This document shows positions 3,448 through 22,284 of a stretch of 39,552 bases of DNA, piece after piece; position 1 is the stretch's first letter, and the number at the start of each line of letters is the position of its first letter. Below the pieces are notes generated by a model, which saw nothing but the letters and a program-made list of their open reading frames with translations, did not search any database and had not been told where the DNA came from. This stretch comes from a virus, in UHGV virus genome UHGV-0150234, one strand, 5' to 3'. A program made the translations under genes and the position numbers.

Positions 3448-3502
3448 GGTATGCACTCCGTTTAATTGGTCGTGCTACCACCAGAGTTCTCACGCTCTTG
3501 AA

Positions 3503-3584
3503 TGGTGGTAGCCCAAGCGGGGGTGAGAATACCGGCAAACGAAGAAACCGGCCTGACCGAAGTCAGCCCCGCCTGAGCCACCAT
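3503..3584 (-). ncRNA. Structured RNA candidate, copy 1 (about 82 nt; possibly C4/immI-type antisense RNA in the antirepressor operon leader)
   Basis: Minus-strand reading has a CUGAC-UUCG-GUCAG tetraloop hairpin, a GCGGGG/CCCCGC stem, and a 3' end GGGCUACCACCA. A paralogous copy at 3818-3898 shows compensatory changes. Confidence 0.45.
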
Positions 3585-3817
3585 AAATCGGATATGCGCA
3601 GGTATATACACACAAAAAAACACGCTGGCGCGTGTTGTGCGCTTCGTTTATCCGGGTTCTCACGCCCGGCTGCGGGATTTACCGCAGCGGAATAACTTTA
3701 CCGTCAAAACGACGCACACGTCAATAATTTGCAAAGACATTTTACCCTGTGACCAGTCACGGGGATAGGTGTTTTTATAGTTTGCTTAAACAAATGATTA
3801 GAAGATAAACGATATTG

Positions 3818-3898
3818 TGGTGGTAGCCCAGGCAGGGTTCTCAACACCGGCCCAAACGACACCGGCCAGCCTTTCGGCTGCCCCGCCTGAACTACCAT
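3818..3898 (-). ncRNA. Structured RNA candidate, copy 2 (paralogue of 3503-3584)
   Basis: Same conserved 5' (AUGGURGYUCAGGCGGGGC) and 3' (GGGCUACCACCA) ends as copy 1; the hairpin is CAGCC-GAAA-GGCUG (GNRA tetraloop), covarying with copy 1; internal loops differ. Confidence 0.45.
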
Positions 3899-4001
3899 TA
3901 GAATAATATACAACAAAACGTAGCATTTTTACTACATTAAAATATAAATATTGTTTACACTTTACTTTACTAATGGGGCGGCTCGGGCTATCCTGATTTT
4001 G

Positions 4002-6214: not shown

Positions 6215-9200
6215 TTACCCATAGAAAGCGCCCTGCTCTTCGTAGCTGCATGGGCTATTCCCGGTAATATATTCACGTAACCGCCGCAGTTCATTACTGG
6301 ACAAGTGATCCATGAACTCTGTTAGGTACAGAGATGCAAACGTCATAGCTATGCTGGCTGATGACCATGATGACATAGTGGCCAGCTCCTCACAGGAAAG
6401 CGCACTCATAGCCCAGGACTCAGGTACAGCCACCGGCAACACTGCCAAAGCCTCAGAAATTACTGAATGAGGGGCGTTTTGAACCTGCTCATTTGTGGAT
6501 CGCGTTTTATCATCCATATATATATTGAGATCCAAATCGCGATCCATTTCGATGGCGGTCTTCTCGGCTTTGCGCGTTTTCAGGGTTAGGCCATCTTTCT
6601 GACGCTGAGCAAGAATATCCAGCATAAATGCCGCTGATTCAGGCTCAACAAAACGCAAGGTTGGACGCTTATCGCCGTCTCTGCCACGACGTTTACCTGT
6701 TTTAAGGCCAAGAGAGTCGCAAATGTTTTTAAACAACGCTTCCGGCACTTTAGGCTTCCCTTTTGGCGTCATAAAACCACCAATGTGCAGAACGTTATTC
6801 AACAGGTCACGGCGTTCGGCTGTCATGAGGTTATCTCGAGCGAATTTGAGACGCTCCTGAGTCGCCTCGCCGGTCATAGTCTCAGGGTTGATACCGCAGT
6901 CGATAAAGTACTGCCGGAGAGTTGCTGATTTAAGCGCATAGAAACCGCGCGCCCCGACTTCAACAGTAGGAGTAGCTTTTACCTTGTAGTCGATTATTCC
7001 AGGGAATTTAGTTTTAAAGACATCATCAGCCTGCTCGCGAGTCATCGCGGTCACTACAAAATATTGCCACTGTCCCGCCTGACGGTATGCGTAGGTAAAA
7101 TTGATGGCTGCTTCTTCCCGGTCGTAACGACGAGCTGTTACCTCATCTAAAAGCATTGTTTCATAGCGGCGAACTTTGTCTCGAGCACCATCGAAATAGA
7201 ATTTCAGCGTGCCTTCTTCAACCGGTAGTTTCAGTTCGTTCTCAATATCCCAGCGGACAAGTTTTGCCTGTTCTTCAAGCGTCAGCGCGCGTTTTTTTAG
7301 CAGTTCTTCACGCTCTGATTCTTGTGGAGTTTCTGTATTGAGATGCAGATCCAGTGTCTGTTCCCACACAATATCCCGCGCTTCTTTACGCAGATCTTTA
7401 CCGATATCATTCGCAGCATAATCGGTGGCCAGCGGCGATACCTTATAACCGTCGCTGTGCATGATGCAGATCATGTTGCTGGCGTAGTCGTTACGCGCAG
7501 ACGCTTCAATTGCGGCTGCTTTAATTTTCATCCTGGTAAAGTCGGTATTGGCCACCCCCATTGATATACGGTCGCCATCGAAAACGACATCCGTCAGTTC
7601 ACCGTTCATGCCTGCGGTAGCAAGCAATGCCTGGGCGAATGCTCGTTCTATTTTTTGCGGGTCAGTTTCACGTTTTGCGCGAGCTTTATCAAAGCCGATA
7701 ATAAATTCTTTTGCTGTACGGTCGCGGCGTAGCATTTGCACTGCGTCGCTGGGTACAACTTCACCACAGAACATGCCGAAATGACGGTCAAAATGTTTTT
7801 GCTCAATCGACACGCCGGATGAAATAGACGGGCTATAAATCAGGCCGTCGTATTTTTTGACCATCTTTTTCGGTTGATTGGTAAATGCTTCAACTTCTGG
7901 CTCTGGTTTGTTTTTCTGGTTTACACACAGAAATTTCTTACCAGGAAAATGCATTCTCAGGGTGGCGGTCACATCTTCTGCAAAGGTGGAGCTGTCGGTG
8001 GCCAACATAATTTTTTCGCCATCCGATACAGCTTTCACCACCTCGGTCATAATGCGATCTTTTTCTGTATAAAAAACCCGGATTGGCTCACCTGTTTCGC
8101 GGTTGCGAACATCAACAGGTAATTCAATTACGTGGATCTGCAGCCATGCGGGTAAACCGAGTTCTTCGCGGCGTTTCATAGCCAGTTCAGCCAGGTCAAC
8201 CAGCAGATCGTTCGCATCAGCATCCACCATGATTGGGTGTTGTTCCGTTCTGGCCAGCGCATCAATTAGCGTATTGAATACAGCCACCGGGTTTTCCATA
8301 GCCCGACCGGAAAGAACGGCACGTAGCCCTTGTGTTGCCTCGTCAAAGCCAAAATAGTCGTGCTGGCGCATCAACGGTTGCCAGCAGTTTTTAACAATCG
8401 AGTTTATGCAGATGGTCAGTTTACTGGCGTATGGGGCCATTTCCTGATAGCCAGGGTCCTGATAGTGCAGGATATCGGCTTTTACACCTTTTCCTTCAGT
8501 CATCATTTCCCACAGACCACCAATAAGGGAAACACGGTGAGCTACAGAGATACCACGTTCTGAGCTATGCATTAACGGTCGTAACAATCCAGTAGATTTG
8601 CCGGAACCCATACCAGCACGGACGATGACTATCCCCTGTAGTGATTGCACGTACTTCAGGACGTCATCGGTCATTACCGAAGTATCAAAACGCTTATAGG
8701 TGATATGTTGAGGGCGTTTATTGGGATCAGTTATGCGTTCGCTGAAAGAGCGCGGAGCCTGGGCAATACGGCACTTTTTATTCAGGCGACGGGCAATATG
8801 GTCTTTTACCGTAGCGCGATAGATATTTTCCAGCCCCATTTCACGCAGAACGATACAGAACATGTTAAATAAATCTGACGGGCTGTTAGGAACCGGACAG
8901 GTCAGCATGCCAATATCTACCGCTCTCAGCAGCTCTTTGGCAAAAGTACGGCGGTTATCCCGCTTAATTGTCTTCAGGCGGTTGAGTGTCAGAGATAGCA
9001 AATCAGTACCGGTTTTCAGGCGGTTTGCTGTTGCGAATAGTTGACGTGCTGTTTCACGAAGTCCACGTAGTTTGTGCAGGTCGTTGAAGTCACTGCACTC
9101 CATTTGCGGATCGTCTTCAAAAGTTGGGTAGACGCAGCGGACATCGTTGAATTTAGATAAGATTTCATAGCCAGTCCGCAGGCCGGTATTCCCTTTTCCT

Positions 9201-10210
9201 TCTGTGGCAGATTTCCGGTCATTATCCAGTGCGCAGGTGATTTTTGCCGCCGGGTACATGTTTACCAGTTGTTCCACAACATGAACCATGTTGTTAGCGG
9301 ATACAGCGACAACCACAGCGTCAAAGCGTTTATCTTTTTTCGTGGCAAGCCAGATGGATGCACCAGTAGCAAAACCTTCTGTAACAGCGATGTTTTGCGC
9401 CCCTTTCAGCTCACCGATAACAAAGCAGGCACCGACGAAATCGCCGCTGGTTACTGCGCTGGTCTGGTATTTCCCACCTTGTTTGTCGATTCGCTGCCAA
9501 CCCACAATACGACCATCATAACGACCGTCCAGGTGAGCCAGAGGGATAGCCATATATGTGGTTGGCCCCCGGCTCCATTTCGCACTGTCGTGACTGGTCA
9601 CGCGACGCACATCACATGAACTAAAAACGTCACGAATACCTTTTTTAATCGCATATGGCCATGAGCCGTCTTCAGCCTGAGCATGTTCCCACGCGCTGTG
9701 GAATGCCAGCCATCCCAGCAAACGTTCATGGTCCATTTGGTTGTTTTTCAGGTCATTAATTCGTTTTTGTTCTTCACGGCGACGACGTGCTTCGGCCTGA
9801 CGTTCTATTCTTTCCCGTTCTTCTTCCGGTTGTGCGACCACGGTCGCATTATTCCGTTGTTGCTCACGGCGATATTCAGAAAACAGGAAGGAGAAACCGC
9901 TCCATGAGCCAGCATCGCTGCCTTTATGGACGAAGTTAATGAACGGGTAATCAATCCCTTTGCTGTGTTCCAGCCTGGAGTAAATTTCTACGCGTCCTTT
10001 CAGGCTCTTTTCGAGAGCTTCTGGAGATGTTTTATTGTATGAAGAGTAACGCTCAACCCCCCCGCGAGGGTTGAGTTGGATGTTGTCGGAACAGGCAGGC
10101 CAGTTGATACCAGCCATCTGTGCCAGCTCGGTTAGTTCATCCCGTGCTGCTTCAATTAGCGAGAACGGATCGCTGCCAAAGCGATCCGCATAGAAATCGT
10201 TTAATGTCAT
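6215..10210 (-). CDS. repA: Multifunctional replication protein RepA (primase-helicase), 1331 aa
   Basis: Size and position match N15 RepA (about 1324 aa from memory). Walker A motif GMGSGKST is present. Downstream of cB on the same strand. The N15 origin is reported to lie inside the 3' part of repA (recalled, not located here). Confidence 0.9.
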   Translation of the reverse strand: MTLNDFYADRFGSDPFSLIEAARDELTELAQMAGINWPACSDNIQLNPRGGVERYSSYNKTSPEALEKSLKGRVEIYSRLEHSKGIDYPFINFVHKGSDAGSWSGFSFLFSEYRREQQRNNATVVAQPEEERERIERQAEARRRREEQKRINDLKNNQMDHERLLGWLAFHSAWEHAQAEDGSWPYAIKKGIRDVFSSCDVRRVTSHDSAKWSRGPTTYMAIPLAHLDGRYDGRIVGWQRIDKQGGKYQTSAVTSGDFVGACFVIGELKGAQNIAVTEGFATGASIWLATKKDKRFDAVVVAVSANNMVHVVEQLVNMYPAAKITCALDNDRKSATEGKGNTGLRTGYEILSKFNDVRCVYPTFEDDPQMECSDFNDLHKLRGLRETARQLFATANRLKTGTDLLSLTLNRLKTIKRDNRRTFAKELLRAVDIGMLTCPVPNSPSDLFNMFCIVLREMGLENIYRATVKDHIARRLNKKCRIAQAPRSFSERITDPNKRPQHITYKRFDTSVMTDDVLKYVQSLQGIVIVRAGMGSGKSTGLLRPLMHSSERGISVAHRVSLIGGLWEMMTEGKGVKADILHYQDPGYQEMAPYASKLTICINSIVKNCWQPLMRQHDYFGFDEATQGLRAVLSGRAMENPVAVFNTLIDALARTEQHPIMVDADANDLLVDLAELAMKRREELGLPAWLQIHVIELPVDVRNRETGEPIRVFYTEKDRIMTEVVKAVSDGEKIMLATDSSTFAEDVTATLRMHFPGKKFLCVNQKNKPEPEVEAFTNQPKKMVKKYDGLIYSPSISSGVSIEQKHFDRHFGMFCGEVVPSDAVQMLRRDRTAKEFIIGFDKARAKRETDPQKIERAFAQALLATAGMNGELTDVVFDGDRISMGVANTDFTRMKIKAAAIEASARNDYASNMICIMHSDGYKVSPLATDYAANDIGKDLRKEARDIVWEQTLDLHLNTETPQESEREELLKKRALTLEEQAKLVRWDIENELKLPVEEGTLKFYFDGARDKVRRYETMLLDEVTARRYDREEAAINFTYAYRQAGQWQYFVVTAMTREQADDVFKTKFPGIIDYKVKATPTVEVGARGFYALKSATLRQYFIDCGINPETMTGEATQERLKFARDNLMTAERRDLLNNVLHIGGFMTPKGKPKVPEALFKNICDSLGLKTGKRRGRDGDKRPTLRFVEPESAAFMLDILAQRQKDGLTLKTRKAEKTAIEMDRDLDLNIYMDDKTRSTNEQVQNAPHSVISEALAVLPVAVPESWAMSALSCEELATMSSWSSASIAMTFASLYLTEFMDHLSSNELRRLREYITGNSPCSYEEQGAFYG

Positions 10211-10332
10211 TTTTTAGCCATTCCATGCGAATTATGTTTTTTCGGGTTGAAAAAATCCGCAGGAGCAGCCACAATAAACGCATCTTGAATTGACGGAATC
10301 TGTCGCGTTGTTGTGGCTGCTTCCTGAAAAGG

Positions 10333-10361
10333 ACCCGAGTTTGCCGACTCGGGTTTTTTTT
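10333..10361 (+). terminator. Hairpin plus T8 tract in the cB-repA intergenic region (intrinsic terminator as read on the plus strand; possible attenuator or countertranscript end)
   Basis: ACCCGAGT-ttgccg-ACTCGGGT followed by TTTTTTTT; preceded by a long imperfect inverted repeat at 10265-10320. Confidence 0.5.
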
Positions 10362-10455
10362 CGTCTTTTTTCTGCTGCTGTAACCTGAGTCAACCCACAG
10401 AACATATGCCCTGCATTAAACCAGATTTACAGCAAACAATAAACCCCGTATTAAG

Positions 10456-11052
10456 TCATCTACCCTCAACCATGAATGATTTGATCGTTCCGACTATTTG
10501 GTGAACAAATTCAAGATCGCTTTTCCTGAAGATGGCGCGTTGTGAGTTTGTTCCATCCAGATAGTAATTTTCATCATCAAAACGGGCCAGGCGCTGGATA
10601 GTGATATTTCCTGCAGTATCACGAACCAGAACATCCTCGCCGGGGACCAGTTCCAGCGCAGAATCGACCAGGAGAAAATCGCCTGGCTGATAGTTTCCCT
10701 GCGTAAGATTGCTGATAGTTAACGCATAAACAGTATTGCGCTGGCTGATGAATGGCAGGAATCGCTCAGTATTTGGAACCTGTCCTGGCTTCCACTCTTC
10801 ATCAGGTCCACTTTCAGTTGTGCCAATAACAGGAATGCGATCAGGGTCATATTCTGTCCCATACAGCACCCAATGCACTGGCTTGCGTAAGCATTTAGCC
10901 AGGGCAATACCTATCTCCAGTGACGGCATTACGTCGCCACGTTCTAAGTTTTGGACGCCTGCAATAGAGATATCGACAGCCTCAGCAACTTCTCGCAACG
11001 TCAGCTTCATCTCTAAACGGCGTGCTTTCAGTCGTTCGCCTCGTGTTTTCAT
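10456..11052 (-). CDS. cB: CI-like prophage repressor CB (HTH plus LexA-like S24 peptidase domain), 198 aa
   Basis: N-terminal HTH (LTLREVAEAVDISIAGVQNLERG), C-terminal S24-like region; divergent from a Cro-like gene and upstream of repA, as in N15 immB. Confidence 0.85.
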   Translation of the reverse strand: MKTRGERLKARRLEMKLTLREVAEAVDISIAGVQNLERGDVMPSLEIGIALAKCLRKPVHWVLYGTEYDPDRIPVIGTTESGPDEEWKPGQVPNTERFLPFISQRNTVYALTISNLTQGNYQPGDFLLVDSALELVPGEDVLVRDTAGNITIQRLARFDDENYYLDGTNSQRAIFRKSDLEFVHQIVGTIKSFMVEGR

Positions 11053-11074
11053 AGCTTAATCATAAATGATCTTC

Positions 11075-11116
11075 TTATAGCTGGCTATAAAATTTATTTA
11101 TTATAGCTGGCTTTAA
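11075..11116. promoter_or_regulatory. Two operator-like sites TTATAGCTGGCTATAA (11075-11090) and TTATAGCTGGCTTTAA (11101-11116) in the cB-cro divergent region
   Basis: Near-palindromic 16-mers (7-bp inverted arms TTATAGC/GCTATAA) repeated 26 bp apart between divergent repressor and cro genes. Confidence 0.5.
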
Positions 11117-11143
11117 TTGTTGTTTATTGTTTATAATAACAAC

Positions 11144-11365
11144 ATGAAACCAGAAGAACTTATTCGCCACTTTGGCAGTGTAGAAAAAGCAGCGGCAGGG
11201 GTAGGTGTAACACCCGGAGCTGTTTACCAATGGTTAACCGCTGGAGAGATTCCTTCATTGCGGCAAAGCGATATTGAAGTTCGTACTGCTTATAAGCTGA
11301 AGAGTGACTTTACAACTCGGCGGGTAAAGCAGTCGATTAAGGAGAGTCGTAAGCGTGGAGCTTGA
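11144..11365 (+). CDS. cro: Cro-like HTH regulator (YdaS/Cro family), 73 aa
   Basis: HTH motif AAAGVGVTPGAVYQWL; divergent from cB. Start chosen at ATG 11144 rather than the track start 11117. Confidence 0.75.
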   Translation: MKPEELIRHFGSVEKAAAGVGVTPGAVYQWLTAGEIPSLRQSDIEVRTAYKLKSDFTTRRVKQSIKESRKRGA

Positions 11366-12065
11366 GTATATACGCAGCTGCGTCTCTACGGCATTGGCTG
11401 ATGTTCATTATCGCCAGCGTGGCATTCTGGAGGTCCAGCTTGAGCAGATGCGTCTCGGTAGATCAGGACGGTTTAACAATAAACCAGTCCGGTCAATCAG
11501 TGTGGGGGATGATAACTCATACGAAGTGTCCGTTCCTGCTGAGCCGGTAAGATTCCACCAGGGGAAAACATTTAAACAATCATCAATGTTGCTCACTGAT
11601 ATTGATTTTCAGAGCGCCAGCTGGCGCAGGGCTATTGGTCAGTTGAATAACGAGGAATCAGCCTGGCTTTATTATTGCTACGGATGCAAGCCAGATTACA
11701 ACAATGATGTGATTGTTTGTCAGTGGTTATGGCTTGATTTTCTGGTTGCTCATTCGGGGGGCGGCTTTAAAAAAATGAAGGCCTCCACGAAAAAAGCCAT
11801 GCGGAAATTGATTTATTACGCGGCACAGCAGGTTAAATCAGAACTTACGTGTGCTGAGGCAGTTGATGAGAGAGAACAGGACAGGCATCTGAGTTTTCTG
11901 CTGAATATATCTATTGATAGCTGGAGACAAGATTATAAAGAACGCTGGCTTTTAATTAAGTCGCGATGTCTGAGCTTAAATCGAACTGCATTATTAAATG
12001 CGGCGGAGAAGCGCAGTGAAATCATCAAACGCCATCGGGCAGGAAGTGCCATTCTGCCTTTGTAA
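11355..12065 (+). CDS. Hypothetical protein, 236 aa; in the position of the N15 Q-like late regulator (function by synteny only)
   Basis: ORF immediately after cro (GTG start overlapping cro end). No motif recognised with confidence. Confidence 0.5.
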   Translation: MELEYIRSCVSTALADVHYRQRGILEVQLEQMRLGRSGRFNNKPVRSISVGDDNSYEVSVPAEPVRFHQGKTFKQSSMLLTDIDFQSASWRRAIGQLNNEESAWLYYCYGCKPDYNNDVIVCQWLWLDFLVAHSGGGFKKMKASTKKAMRKLIYYAAQQVKSELTCAEAVDEREQDRHLSFLLNISIDSWRQDYKERWLLIKSRCLSLNRTALLNAAEKRSEIIKRHRAGSAILPL

Positions 12066-12072
12066 ACAAGTT

Positions 12073-12318
12073 ATGTTCAGGAAACCGTCGAAGCCAGAAT
12101 TAAGGTATTCGGGGGTAAGAAATGAATATGTTATCTGGTGTCCAACTTGTGGTTACAGGACACGACCAGATAGTAATAAGCAGTCTGTAATTGCCGATTG
12201 GTATTTATCAAATCAGCCAGGTAATAAGCATATAGAAAATCTTTGGATTAAGCGTTACTTGGAAATCAGAGAGGGTGCGACCGTGGTCGCACAAGAAAAT
12301 GAAAATAACGCCATTTAA
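12073..12318 (+). CDS. Hypothetical small protein with CxxC pair (possible zinc ribbon), 81 aa
   Basis: ATG at 12073 inside track ORF 11998-12318; contains CPTCG. The 3' end overlaps a sopC-like palindrome. Confidence 0.4.
   Translation: MFRKPSKPELRYSGVRNEYVIWCPTCGYRTRPDSNKQSVIADWYLSNQPGNKHIENLWIKRYLEIREGATVVAQENENNAI
12275..12292. other. sopC-like centromere-type palindrome GTGCGACCGTGGTCGCAC (copy 1 of 5)
   Basis: 7-bp inverted arms GTGCGAC/GTCGCAC around CGTG; one substitution per arm from the F sopC SopB site (TGGGACCACGGTCCCA) as recalled. Confidence 0.6.
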
Positions 12319-17325: not shown

Positions 17326-17343
17326 GTGCGACCACGGTCGCAC
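17326..17343. other. sopC-like centromere-type palindrome GTGCGACCACGGTCGCAC (copy 2 of 5, centre inverted)
   Basis: Same arms as the other copies but centre CACG instead of CGTG (opposite orientation); core GCGACCACGGTCGC. Confidence 0.6.
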
Positions 17344-20360: not shown

Positions 20361-20378
20361 GTGCGACCGTGGTCGCAC
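20361..20378. other. sopC-like centromere-type palindrome GTGCGACCGTGGTCGCAC (copy 3 of 5)
   Basis: Exact 18-mer, directly followed by a 70-bp repeat unit. Confidence 0.6.
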
Positions 20379-20581: not shown

Positions 20582-20599
20582 GTGCGACCGTGGTCGCAC
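20582..20599. other. sopC-like centromere-type palindrome GTGCGACCGTGGTCGCAC (copy 4 of 5)
   Basis: Exact 18-mer 24 bp upstream of the 20623 start codon. Confidence 0.6.
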
Positions 20600-22266: not shown

Positions 22267-22284
22267 GTGCGACCGTGGTCGCAC
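22267..22284. other. sopC-like centromere-type palindrome GTGCGACCGTGGTCGCAC (copy 5 of 5)
   Basis: Exact 18-mer between the cargo island and cos. Confidence 0.6.

Follow-up and report, generated by a model that had tools for sequence, protein, structure and literature searches.

Whether synthesis of the replication protein RepA is controlled by an antisense RNA as well as by the prophage repressor is the question raised by the 245-nt spacer between cB and repA (positions 10211-10455) in the virus genome UHGV-0150234, a stretch of 39,552 nucleotides that was analysed as a whole (hereafter the window). The window represents a telomere phage-plasmid of the N15 kind. Linear phage-plasmids have their model in the N15-type replicons, on which the pJAZZ linear cloning vectors are also built. 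An initial annotation, made from the nucleotide sequence alone, had offered two readings of the spacer, a short plus-strand countertranscript ending at a hairpin with a T8 tract, or a leaky minus-strand attenuator between cB and repA. Both are the hypothesis that has been attached to N15 since 1996, and the element is, judged by homology, an unannotated ortholog of an N15 feature already described as putative. We consider it probable (roughly 0.7) that the spacer is the ortholog of the N15 repA-leader control module, with a countertranscript that would lower RepA by pairing with the leader.

Predicted antisense promoter and terminator in the cB-repA spacer

GenBank entry U45242 (N15 immB, 1996) annotates at homologous positions 'Pinc; promoter of putative antisense RNA' (-35 TTGAAA, -10 CACAAT), a 'putative terminator of RNA antisense to repA transcript' on the plus strand and a 'putative terminator of repA leader transcript' on the minus strand. 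A promoter scan matched a site with hexamers identical to those of the U45242 Pinc at 10247..10275 on the plus strand, consisting of the -35 TTGAAA (10247-10252), a 17-nt spacer and the -10 CACAAT (10270-10275), reading away from repA and invariant in 34 distinct relatives. Transcription is predicted to start at the A at 10282, giving a putative countertranscript of 80 nt (10282..10361, plus strand) with a free 5' tail (10282-10294), stem-loop I (10295-10324) and a terminator stem-loop II with a U8 tail. In silico, this would be a short structured RNA that is transcribed antisense to repA from a promoter of its own and ends at an intrinsic terminator; it is complementary by construction to the leader expected from the repA promoter PL. 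The proposal of a plus-strand countertranscript ending at T8 is supported by the U45242 annotation, the identical Pinc and terminator and the comparative data below, and the proposed leaky minus-strand attenuator would match the repA-leader terminator of U45242 and the label 'putative bidirectional' that the phiKO2 record gives to the homologous hairpin.

The long imperfect inverted repeat described in the initial annotation was present, with arms at 10260-10281 and 10305-10326 and one bulge; a repeat search returned arms of 14 nt, 93% complementary, at 10264-10277 and 10308-10321. Likewise present was the GC hairpin with T8, at 10327-10361, with T8 on the plus strand and A8 preceding the hairpin on the minus strand. 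Repeat and terminator scans, together with the terminator annotation in N15 and phiKO2, mark it as a putative bidirectional terminator hairpin (10327..10361, both strands), with a core stem of CCCGAGT (10334-10340) and ACTCGGG (10347-10353), a flanking A/T extension and T8 at 10354-10361. In the N15 genome record (AF064539) the stem-loop is a rho-independent terminator adjoining an operator of the repressor CB. The hairpin CCCGAGTTTGCCGACTCGGG with its T8 (10334-10361) is identical in N15 and phiKO2, and the terminator hairpin was identical in 48 IMG/VR contigs. On the plus strand, where the GC-rich core of 7-8 bp is followed by T8, the scan called a terminator-like site of 16 pairs; on the minus strand, where A8 stands before the hairpin and only UCCUUUUC, a weak U-tract, after it, the scan made no call. 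The plus strand at 10255-10370 folded with -55.4 kcal/mol against -29.6 +/- 3.6 kcal/mol for shuffles (z -7.2, 0/200), and the minus strand at 10190-10420 with -68.5 kcal/mol against -50.7 +/- 4.4 kcal/mol (z -4.0, 0/200). Counts of terminator-like and promoter-like matches were not above chance in the 1.8-kb region scanned; the weight of the observation rests on fold energy, conservation and homology.

No Rfam family was assigned to 10211-10455, either in an E-value search of 9500-11500 or in a gathering search of the whole window; the best Rfam 15 match in the spacer was NsiR1 (26.4 bits, threshold 39), a terminator-shaped chance match. Next to the hairpin, the alignment showed a conserved CGTC-T6-C-TGCTGCT (10362..10381, minus strand), which in the mRNA is an A-rich tract plus GCAGCAGC ('alpha', 10381->10373), the latter being an alternative pairing partner of the left repeat arm. 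Immediately 5' of the terminator hairpin, the leader mRNA has a conserved A-rich tract, GAAAAAAGACGAAAAAAAA (10354-10371). We speculate that this tract and the U8 end of the putative countertranscript are a pair of features of the kind that Hfq binds.

Conservation of the spacer and a variable cassette

Among PLSDB plasmids, 214 carried the spacer (Klebsiella 176, Escherichia 28, Enterobacter 7, Citrobacter 2, Shigella 1), and so did 18 of the 5426 complete E. coli genomes, on plasmids every time. N15-like elements are common in clinical Klebsiella and E. coli. The left arm occurred as an exact string in 49 IMG/VR contigs, 48 of which also had the terminator, and a search of the genome contigs with a single RepA fragment returned one locus only. 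The identity of the region is 99.3% to Escherichia phage YDC107_1 and about 78% to N15 and phiKO2; over the intergenic region the identity to N15 is ~81%, and the promoter and terminator blocks are identical.

The pattern of conservation was taken from an alignment of 34 distinct spacers, and mean pairwise differences from 17 sequences with flanks. At third codon positions the difference was 0.357 in repA (9311-10210) and 0.300 in cB (10459-11052). Within the spacer it was 0.054 in the translation-initiation region (TIR; 10211-10235), 0.016 in the Pinc block through +1 (10236-10282), 0.355 plus indels in a cassette at 10283-10322, 0.060 in the terminator block (10323-10373) and 0.198 in the region of PL and the left operators OL (10374-10455). 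In most variants invariance extended up to the predicted +1 at 10282 and variation set in at 10283, two cassette alleles differing at 10280 or 10281. The variable cassette (10283..10322) comprises the loop and most of the right repeat arm and was present as 21 alleles of roughly 40-45 nt; in the window it differs from N15 at 19 of 40 positions. The cassette diverges at the synonymous rate, yet both predicted structures described below are kept.

N15 (L001) and a second record, L021, are nearly identical in cB third positions (17/198 differ) and in PL/OL (1/82), whereas their cassettes (19/39) and repA third positions (109/300) are diverged. This contrast places a mosaic junction at or near the terminator and indicates that the cassette travels with repA. 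These alignments suggest that recombination between the immunity module and the replication module has its boundary in the invariant terminator block. In both L021 and L024 the junction relative to N15 lies in the region homologous to 10323-10373.

RNA structure on the two strands

In the repA leader mRNA the repeat would fold into a long hairpin, with the variable arm ('beta', 10305..10326, minus strand) as its 5' arm and the invariant arm ('gamma', 10260..10281, minus strand), which on the DNA also holds the Pinc spacer and -10, as its 3' arm; the beta:gamma pairing was calculated at -33 kcal/mol. On the mRNA strand this hairpin was kept in 21/21 alleles (-27 to -40 kcal/mol), with z-scores of -3.3 to -7.5 relative to shuffled cassettes that were paired with the invariant arm. 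As gamma does not vary, the pairing is maintained by changes on the beta side alone. In N15 two pairs of the long hairpin are G.U on the mRNA strand; read on the other strand, both would be C.A mismatches. Since the left repeat arm contains the Pinc -10, the predicted countertranscript lacks that arm and the long hairpin is possible only in the leader mRNA.

The predicted countertranscript showed one architecture in 21/21 variants, namely a free 5' tail of 11-13 nt, stem-loop I and the terminator. Stem-loop I is closed by GGA/UCC and has 10-12 pairs, including 2-5 G.U pairs; its mean energy was -9.1 kcal/mol on the plus strand versus -2.2 kcal/mol on the other strand of the same DNA. When the halves of stem-loop I were permuted at clade level, the native sum was -102.7 versus -87.6 +/- 5.7 for the permuted partners (p 0.0035), the latter being between-clade chimeras. 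The structural comparisons lend moderate support to a functional plus-strand RNA.

Predicted repA promoter, candidate CB operators and known copy-number control

The initial annotation had assumed a common cB-repA transcript. Read-through from cB is probable, but repA is not simply the distal gene of that transcript: a promoter of its own, PL, is predicted together with candidate CB operators at 10404-10443, between the hairpin and the cB stop. U45242 annotates the CB operators OL1 and OL2 and 'PL; putative promoter of repA gene' at homologous positions. The PL-homologous promoter (10415..10443, minus strand), assigned from the N15 annotation and with hexamers conserved in the alignment, has a -35 TTTATT (10443->10438), a 17-nt spacer and a -10 TTTAAT (10420->10415), with a predicted start near 10408; it was too weak to be called by the consensus promoter scan. 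The predicted OL2 homolog (10427..10442), TTACAGCAAACAATAA, has two mismatches to TTATAG-N4-CTATAA, the palindrome that also makes up the OR sites of the window at 11075-11139. The OL1-equivalent (10404..10419), ATATGCCCTGCATTAA, keeps a TA-N10-TA core and has 5/12 palindrome mismatches compared with 4/12 in N15 OL1; its function here is uncertain.

In N15 and phiKO2, CB binds both OL sites between cB and repA (PMC4997575), represses repA and lowers prophage copy number (PMC4997575; PMC4488713), and Cro does not bind at the OL sites (PMC4997575; PMC4488713). Expression of the antirepressor raised the copy number of N15-based vectors from ~5 to ~50 (PMC2847241). These three studies credit copy-number control to CB alone and do not mention an antisense RNA, and full-text searches of the open literature returned no description of an N15 antisense RNA, a layer that is present only as 'putative' in the database record.

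Two small open reading frames (ORFs) occur in the repA leader of the window clade only. One has 57 codons (10232-10405, minus strand) and starts ~3 nt from the predicted PL start site; the other (10207-10221, minus strand) has four codons (MAKK), its UGA overlapping the repA AUG as AUGA. Both are probably fortuitous since they are absent from N15, phiKO2 and the other clades, and no leader ORF was conserved across clades.

Proposed mechanism

In the mechanism that we propose, repA would be transcribed leftward from the CB-repressible PL (~10408), probably supplemented by cB read-through, with a leader of roughly 200 nt. Convergent transcription from Pinc would produce the 80-nt plus-strand RNA, ending at the T8 of the hairpin, and the same hairpin would terminate leader transcripts coming from the opposite direction, less efficiently. 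The countertranscript would be complementary to the terminator hairpin and to the 5' arm and loop of the long leader hairpin, and its pairing with the leader would lower RepA synthesis in proportion to copy number; from this we infer a role in negative feedback and incompatibility. The free 5' tail would be complementary to a single-stranded part of the apical loop of the leader hairpin, a plausible nucleation site.

The predicted countertranscript does not reach the repA AUG but falls 72 nt short of it, and could therefore influence RepA only indirectly. Direct occlusion of the ribosome-binding site (RBS) was ruled out on coordinates, as the complementary stretch extends no further than 10282, whereas the AUG lies at 10210. 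Folding models suggest that the link between RNA pairing and lower RepA may be the masking of the repA RBS by freed gamma. Gamma would normally be held by beta in the leader hairpin; capture of beta by the countertranscript would free gamma, which would pair with the repA Shine-Dalgarno (SD)/AUG region and shut translation. Gamma in the mRNA (10282->10257), UGCGUUUAUUGUGGCUGCUCCUGCGG, is complementary to the repA initiation region, and the predicted gamma:TIR duplex covers CGCAUGGA, GGCUA and AUG with -17.5 to -21.7 kcal/mol (z -1.5 to -3.6 relative to shuffled gamma). The repA SD-like GGAAUGG (10218..10224, minus strand), read from the sequence and corresponding to the N15 RBS annotation, lies inside the nearly invariant 10211-10235. 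Minimum-free-energy structures predict a local hairpin around the repA start (10185..10231, minus strand), in which mRNA UUCGCAUGGAA (10231->10221) pairs with UUCUAUGCGGA (10195->10185, repA codons 6-9) and the AUG is in the loop.

For the folding of the two states only the leader part from gamma onward was used, the upstream part being excluded on the steric argument that an 80-bp duplex would lie between. With gamma blocked, as in the long hairpin, the AUG was in the loop of the local hairpin. With gamma free, the fold gained 13-17 kcal/mol, and the unpaired probability of the initiation region fell from 0.63 to 0.41 in the window and from 0.51 to 0.40 in N15. Such a switch would explain why gamma is frozen, as it would be promoter, hairpin arm and anti-SD in one; it would also explain the frozen initiation region, the drifting cassette and an antisense target that ends short of the RBS.

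A more far-reaching version of the proposal, which we regard as tentative and rather doubtful, is that of a three-way switch built on overlapping constraints, with cassette alleles as specificity groups and a design shared with PY54 and VP882-like marine telomere phages. The segment 10257-10282 would combine three functions, as spacer and -10 of the antisense promoter, as 3' arm of the leader hairpin and as repA anti-SD/anti-AUG sequence, and the cassette would be free to drift while pairing with gamma in the mRNA and forming stem-loop I in the antisense RNA. On this view, N15-like phage-plasmids would fall into replication-control specificity (incompatibility) groups according to which of the 21 or more cassette alleles they carry.

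If the proposal is correct, the countertranscript would explain copy-number sensing that is independent of the lysis-lysogeny repressor and exclusion or tolerance among related phage-plasmids, and would show which bases to change for tuning vector copy number.

Distant relatives

A tblastn search with the RepA N-terminus identified PY54 and P840 (47% identity), VP882 (30%) and phiHAP-1 (28%), in all of which a repressor gene is followed by repA on one strand. In the antisense direction the PY54 spacer contains TTGCGC-18-TACAAT, a repeat with that -10 in its promoter-side arm and a GC hairpin with T5, and would yield a predicted RNA of ~80 nt with tail, stem-loop and terminator; its gamma-equivalent UUUCCGC is complementary to the SD GCGGAAA. 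The VP882 spacer has TTGCTA-17-TACACT inside a repeat arm and, downstream, an A6...T6 bidirectional hairpin, and its outer arm CCUCGG is complementary to the SD region CCGAGG. In phiHAP-1 an antisense promoter-like site and a terminator-like hairpin were found at equivalent places. Individually the promoter sites of these relatives are weak consensus matches; it is the repeated layout without sequence similarity, and not single matches, that carries the argument from distant relatives.

Contrary evidence and alternative explanations

A number of results speak against a countertranscript acting on the leader. The features of the N15 module are labelled 'putative' in U45242 itself, and Pinc matches the consensus at 9/12 positions, a quality of match no commoner here than in shuffles. 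The shuffle z-scores of stem-loop I are modest (-2.9 to +0.4), and G/U richness accounts in part for its strand asymmetry. RNAalifold, applied to a MAFFT alignment of the 21 predicted countertranscripts, detected no covariation and recovered only the invariant terminator, because the terminator does not vary and stem-loop I is misaligned by indels; it was for this misalignment that alignment-free tests were used. In PY54 and VP882 the gamma:TIR duplexes are individually not significant (z -1.0 and -1.2). Folding of the whole leader in which the antisense-bound stretch was kept unpaired did not alter how accessible the initiation region was, since gamma turned to the upstream GCAGCAGC as its partner. 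Equilibrium folding of the full leader thus fails to support the simple version of the switch, which appears only with the upstream part excluded; that pairing of gamma with GCAGCAGC across an 80-bp duplex is sterically doubtful is an argument and not a result. Furthermore, U5-6 comes directly after the GUCC/GGAU closure of the long hairpin, and if that hairpin acts as a terminator, antisense pairing would raise read-through, an effect of opposite sign. As regards control of the pT181/pIP501 type, where antisense pairing brings about an intrinsic terminator directly upstream of rep, the only strong hairpin with a U-run after it is the one that antisense pairing would disrupt, and with gamma free no other strong terminator was seen. 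Finally, coupling through a leader peptide of the IncFII/IncB type is excluded as no leader ORF is conserved.

The hairpin might serve as an insulator only, a bidirectional terminator that ends cB and PL leader transcripts and blocks stray antisense transcription into PL/cB, copy number being set by CB at OL/PL alone. This would agree with the simple annotation 'putative bidirectional' in phiKO2, with CB being the only documented control of repA and copy number in PMC4997575, PMC4488713 and PMC2847241, and with the mere 9/12 match of Pinc; we nevertheless think it unlikely, as it leaves unexplained the near-invariance of 47 nt (Pinc -35, spacer, -10 and +1) against a synonymous difference of 36%, the plus-strand stem-loop of the cassette with its co-adapted halves, and the -10-like hexamer in the same arm of the analogous PY54 and VP882 repeats. 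We give a slightly smaller chance to a cis-acting attenuator without antisense RNA, in which one or two intrinsic terminators in the leader would hold read-through into repA at a fixed low level, perhaps subject to modulation by a protein or by translation; the candidates are the long hairpin, with its GUCC/GGAU closure and U5-6, and the GC hairpin, followed by UCCUUUUC. U45242 does list a 'putative terminator of repA leader transcript', and the long hairpin, which every cassette allele retains, leads from its closing stem straight into a U-run. The minus-strand U-tracts are, however, short or interrupted, the U-run after the long hairpin is the complement of an A-run beside the Pinc -35 and is not conserved after the analogous PY54 and VP882 hairpins, and no conserved leader ORF is available to couple translation with attenuation. 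Attenuation in cis can also coexist with the antisense model and need not replace it.

The extreme conservation of 10236-10282, part of which is one arm of an inverted repeat, could alternatively reflect a protein-binding site, for instance for RepA autoregulation or a host factor, with the repeat as a recognition element at the DNA level. This we judge very improbable: only one arm is conserved and the other drifts at the neutral rate with indels, which fits RNA pairing with G.U tolerance and not a palindromic protein site; moreover, neither CB nor Cro of phiKO2 bound the OL region outside its operator-containing part (PMC4997575), and no operator-like match was found within 10236-10282.

Comparison with known control systems

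The module shares with that of N15 the gene order, the Pinc hexamers and spacing and the terminator hairpin with T8, and has putative homologs of PL and OL2; it differs in that the cassette and the OL1-equivalent are diverged in the window and that the 57-codon and 4-codon ORFs are absent from N15. By analogy, it would belong to the cis-encoded countertranscript copy-control systems such as CopA, Inc RNA, pT181 RNAI and pSK41 RNAI, with a logic closest to that of RNAI of the staphylococcal plasmid pSK41. RNAI reportedly binds the rep leader upstream of the RBS and acts by attenuation and RBS sequestration. If the switch model is right, the two systems would have in common a target outside the RBS and a pairing by which the leader is re-folded and the initiation region becomes masked by a freed segment. 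There is no sequence or replicon relationship between them, the replication protein here being the primase-helicase of a linear phage-plasmid; here, too, the antisense promoter lies inside the sequestering arm and a prophage repressor provides a second control layer.

CopA-CopT of R1/IncFII and the Inc RNA of IncI/IncB plasmids are systems in which a short, constitutive, structured countertranscript with an intrinsic terminator serves as copy-number sensor and incompatibility determinant. The predicted RNA resembles them as a terminator-ended RNA complementary to a rep leader, and its variable target recalls the diversification of incompatibility groups. The IncFII and IncI/IncB systems act via a leader peptide (tap, repY) translationally coupled to rep, IncI/B using an activator pseudoknot in addition, whereas the module of the window has no conserved leader ORF, and leader-peptide coupling of the IncFII/IncB type was ruled out on this ground.

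The whole-window Rfam gathering search returned only C4 (twice) and isrK, within 3501-3902. The C4 antisense RNA matches, at 3501-3588 and 3816-3902 (minus strand; 82 and 69 bits), flank isrK at 3615-3688 (64 bits). This region is presumably the secondary-immunity (antirepressor) control, equivalent to the CA RNA of N15. The C4/CA RNA of P1, P7 and N15 (Rfam RF01695) is the other small antisense RNA of N15-type phage-plasmids and is present in the window too, but it is unrelated in sequence and target and controls the antirepressor operon, not repA.

Flanking genes and other features of the window

The spacer is bounded by the repA start codon (10208..10210) and the cB stop codon (10456..10458), both on the minus strand and placed by ORF calls. 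The gene cB (10456..11052, minus strand) is an ORF of 198 aa encoding a helix-turn-helix repressor by NCBIfam and is followed on the same strand, across the 245 nt, by repA (6215..10210, minus strand), an ORF of 1331 aa belonging to the CyRepA1 family by NCBIfam; the gene order is syntenic with N15 and phiKO2.

Some records contained two copies of the control region, and their cassettes were identical in every one, as expected of dimers. They comprised the IMG/VR contigs L029/L060, L032/L063, L037/L041, L051/L055, L062/L070 and L038 and PLSDB/RefSeq records, for example H33, H42, H61, H90, H98 and H105. Where strands were reported the copies were mostly in inverted orientation (L038 had the same orientation), and several plasmid records exceeded unit length, a picture more in keeping with head-to-head dimers, or with artefacts in the assembly of linear plasmids with hairpin ends, than with different plasmids residing together. 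None of the E. coli complete genomes with the spacer carried two separate N15-like plasmids (18 genomes, 18 records). The unverified partial genome of Klebsiella phage Kpn_R1 (L078, PQ800144.1) ends inside the cassette (~1470-1500) and continues with unrelated sequence, as a result of either rearrangement or misassembly, and was not used.

At its start (1-46) the window has a perfect 46-bp palindrome with the halves GTACATAATTCACCATTATACGC and GCGTATAATGGTGAATTATGTAC and the tel-type core TATACGCGCGTATA. It looks like an intact telomere-resolution site (telRL/telO-type) of an N15-like phage, which fits a telomere phage-plasmid. The repA coding region contains, near codon 50, a 10-bp GC-rich hairpin, CTCAACCCTCGCGGGGGGGTTGAG (10052-10075, minus strand), that was flagged by the terminator scan. 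An 18-bp palindrome, GTGCGACC(A/G)(C/T)GGTCGCA(C/T), was matched in six dispersed copies in the window (9832-9849, 12275-12292, 17326-17343, 20361-20378, 20582-20599 and 22267-22284; ~0.03 matches expected by chance). The phiKO2 record labels the same palindrome 'putative plasmid partitioning site', and one of the window copies lies inside repA, ~360 nt from its start.

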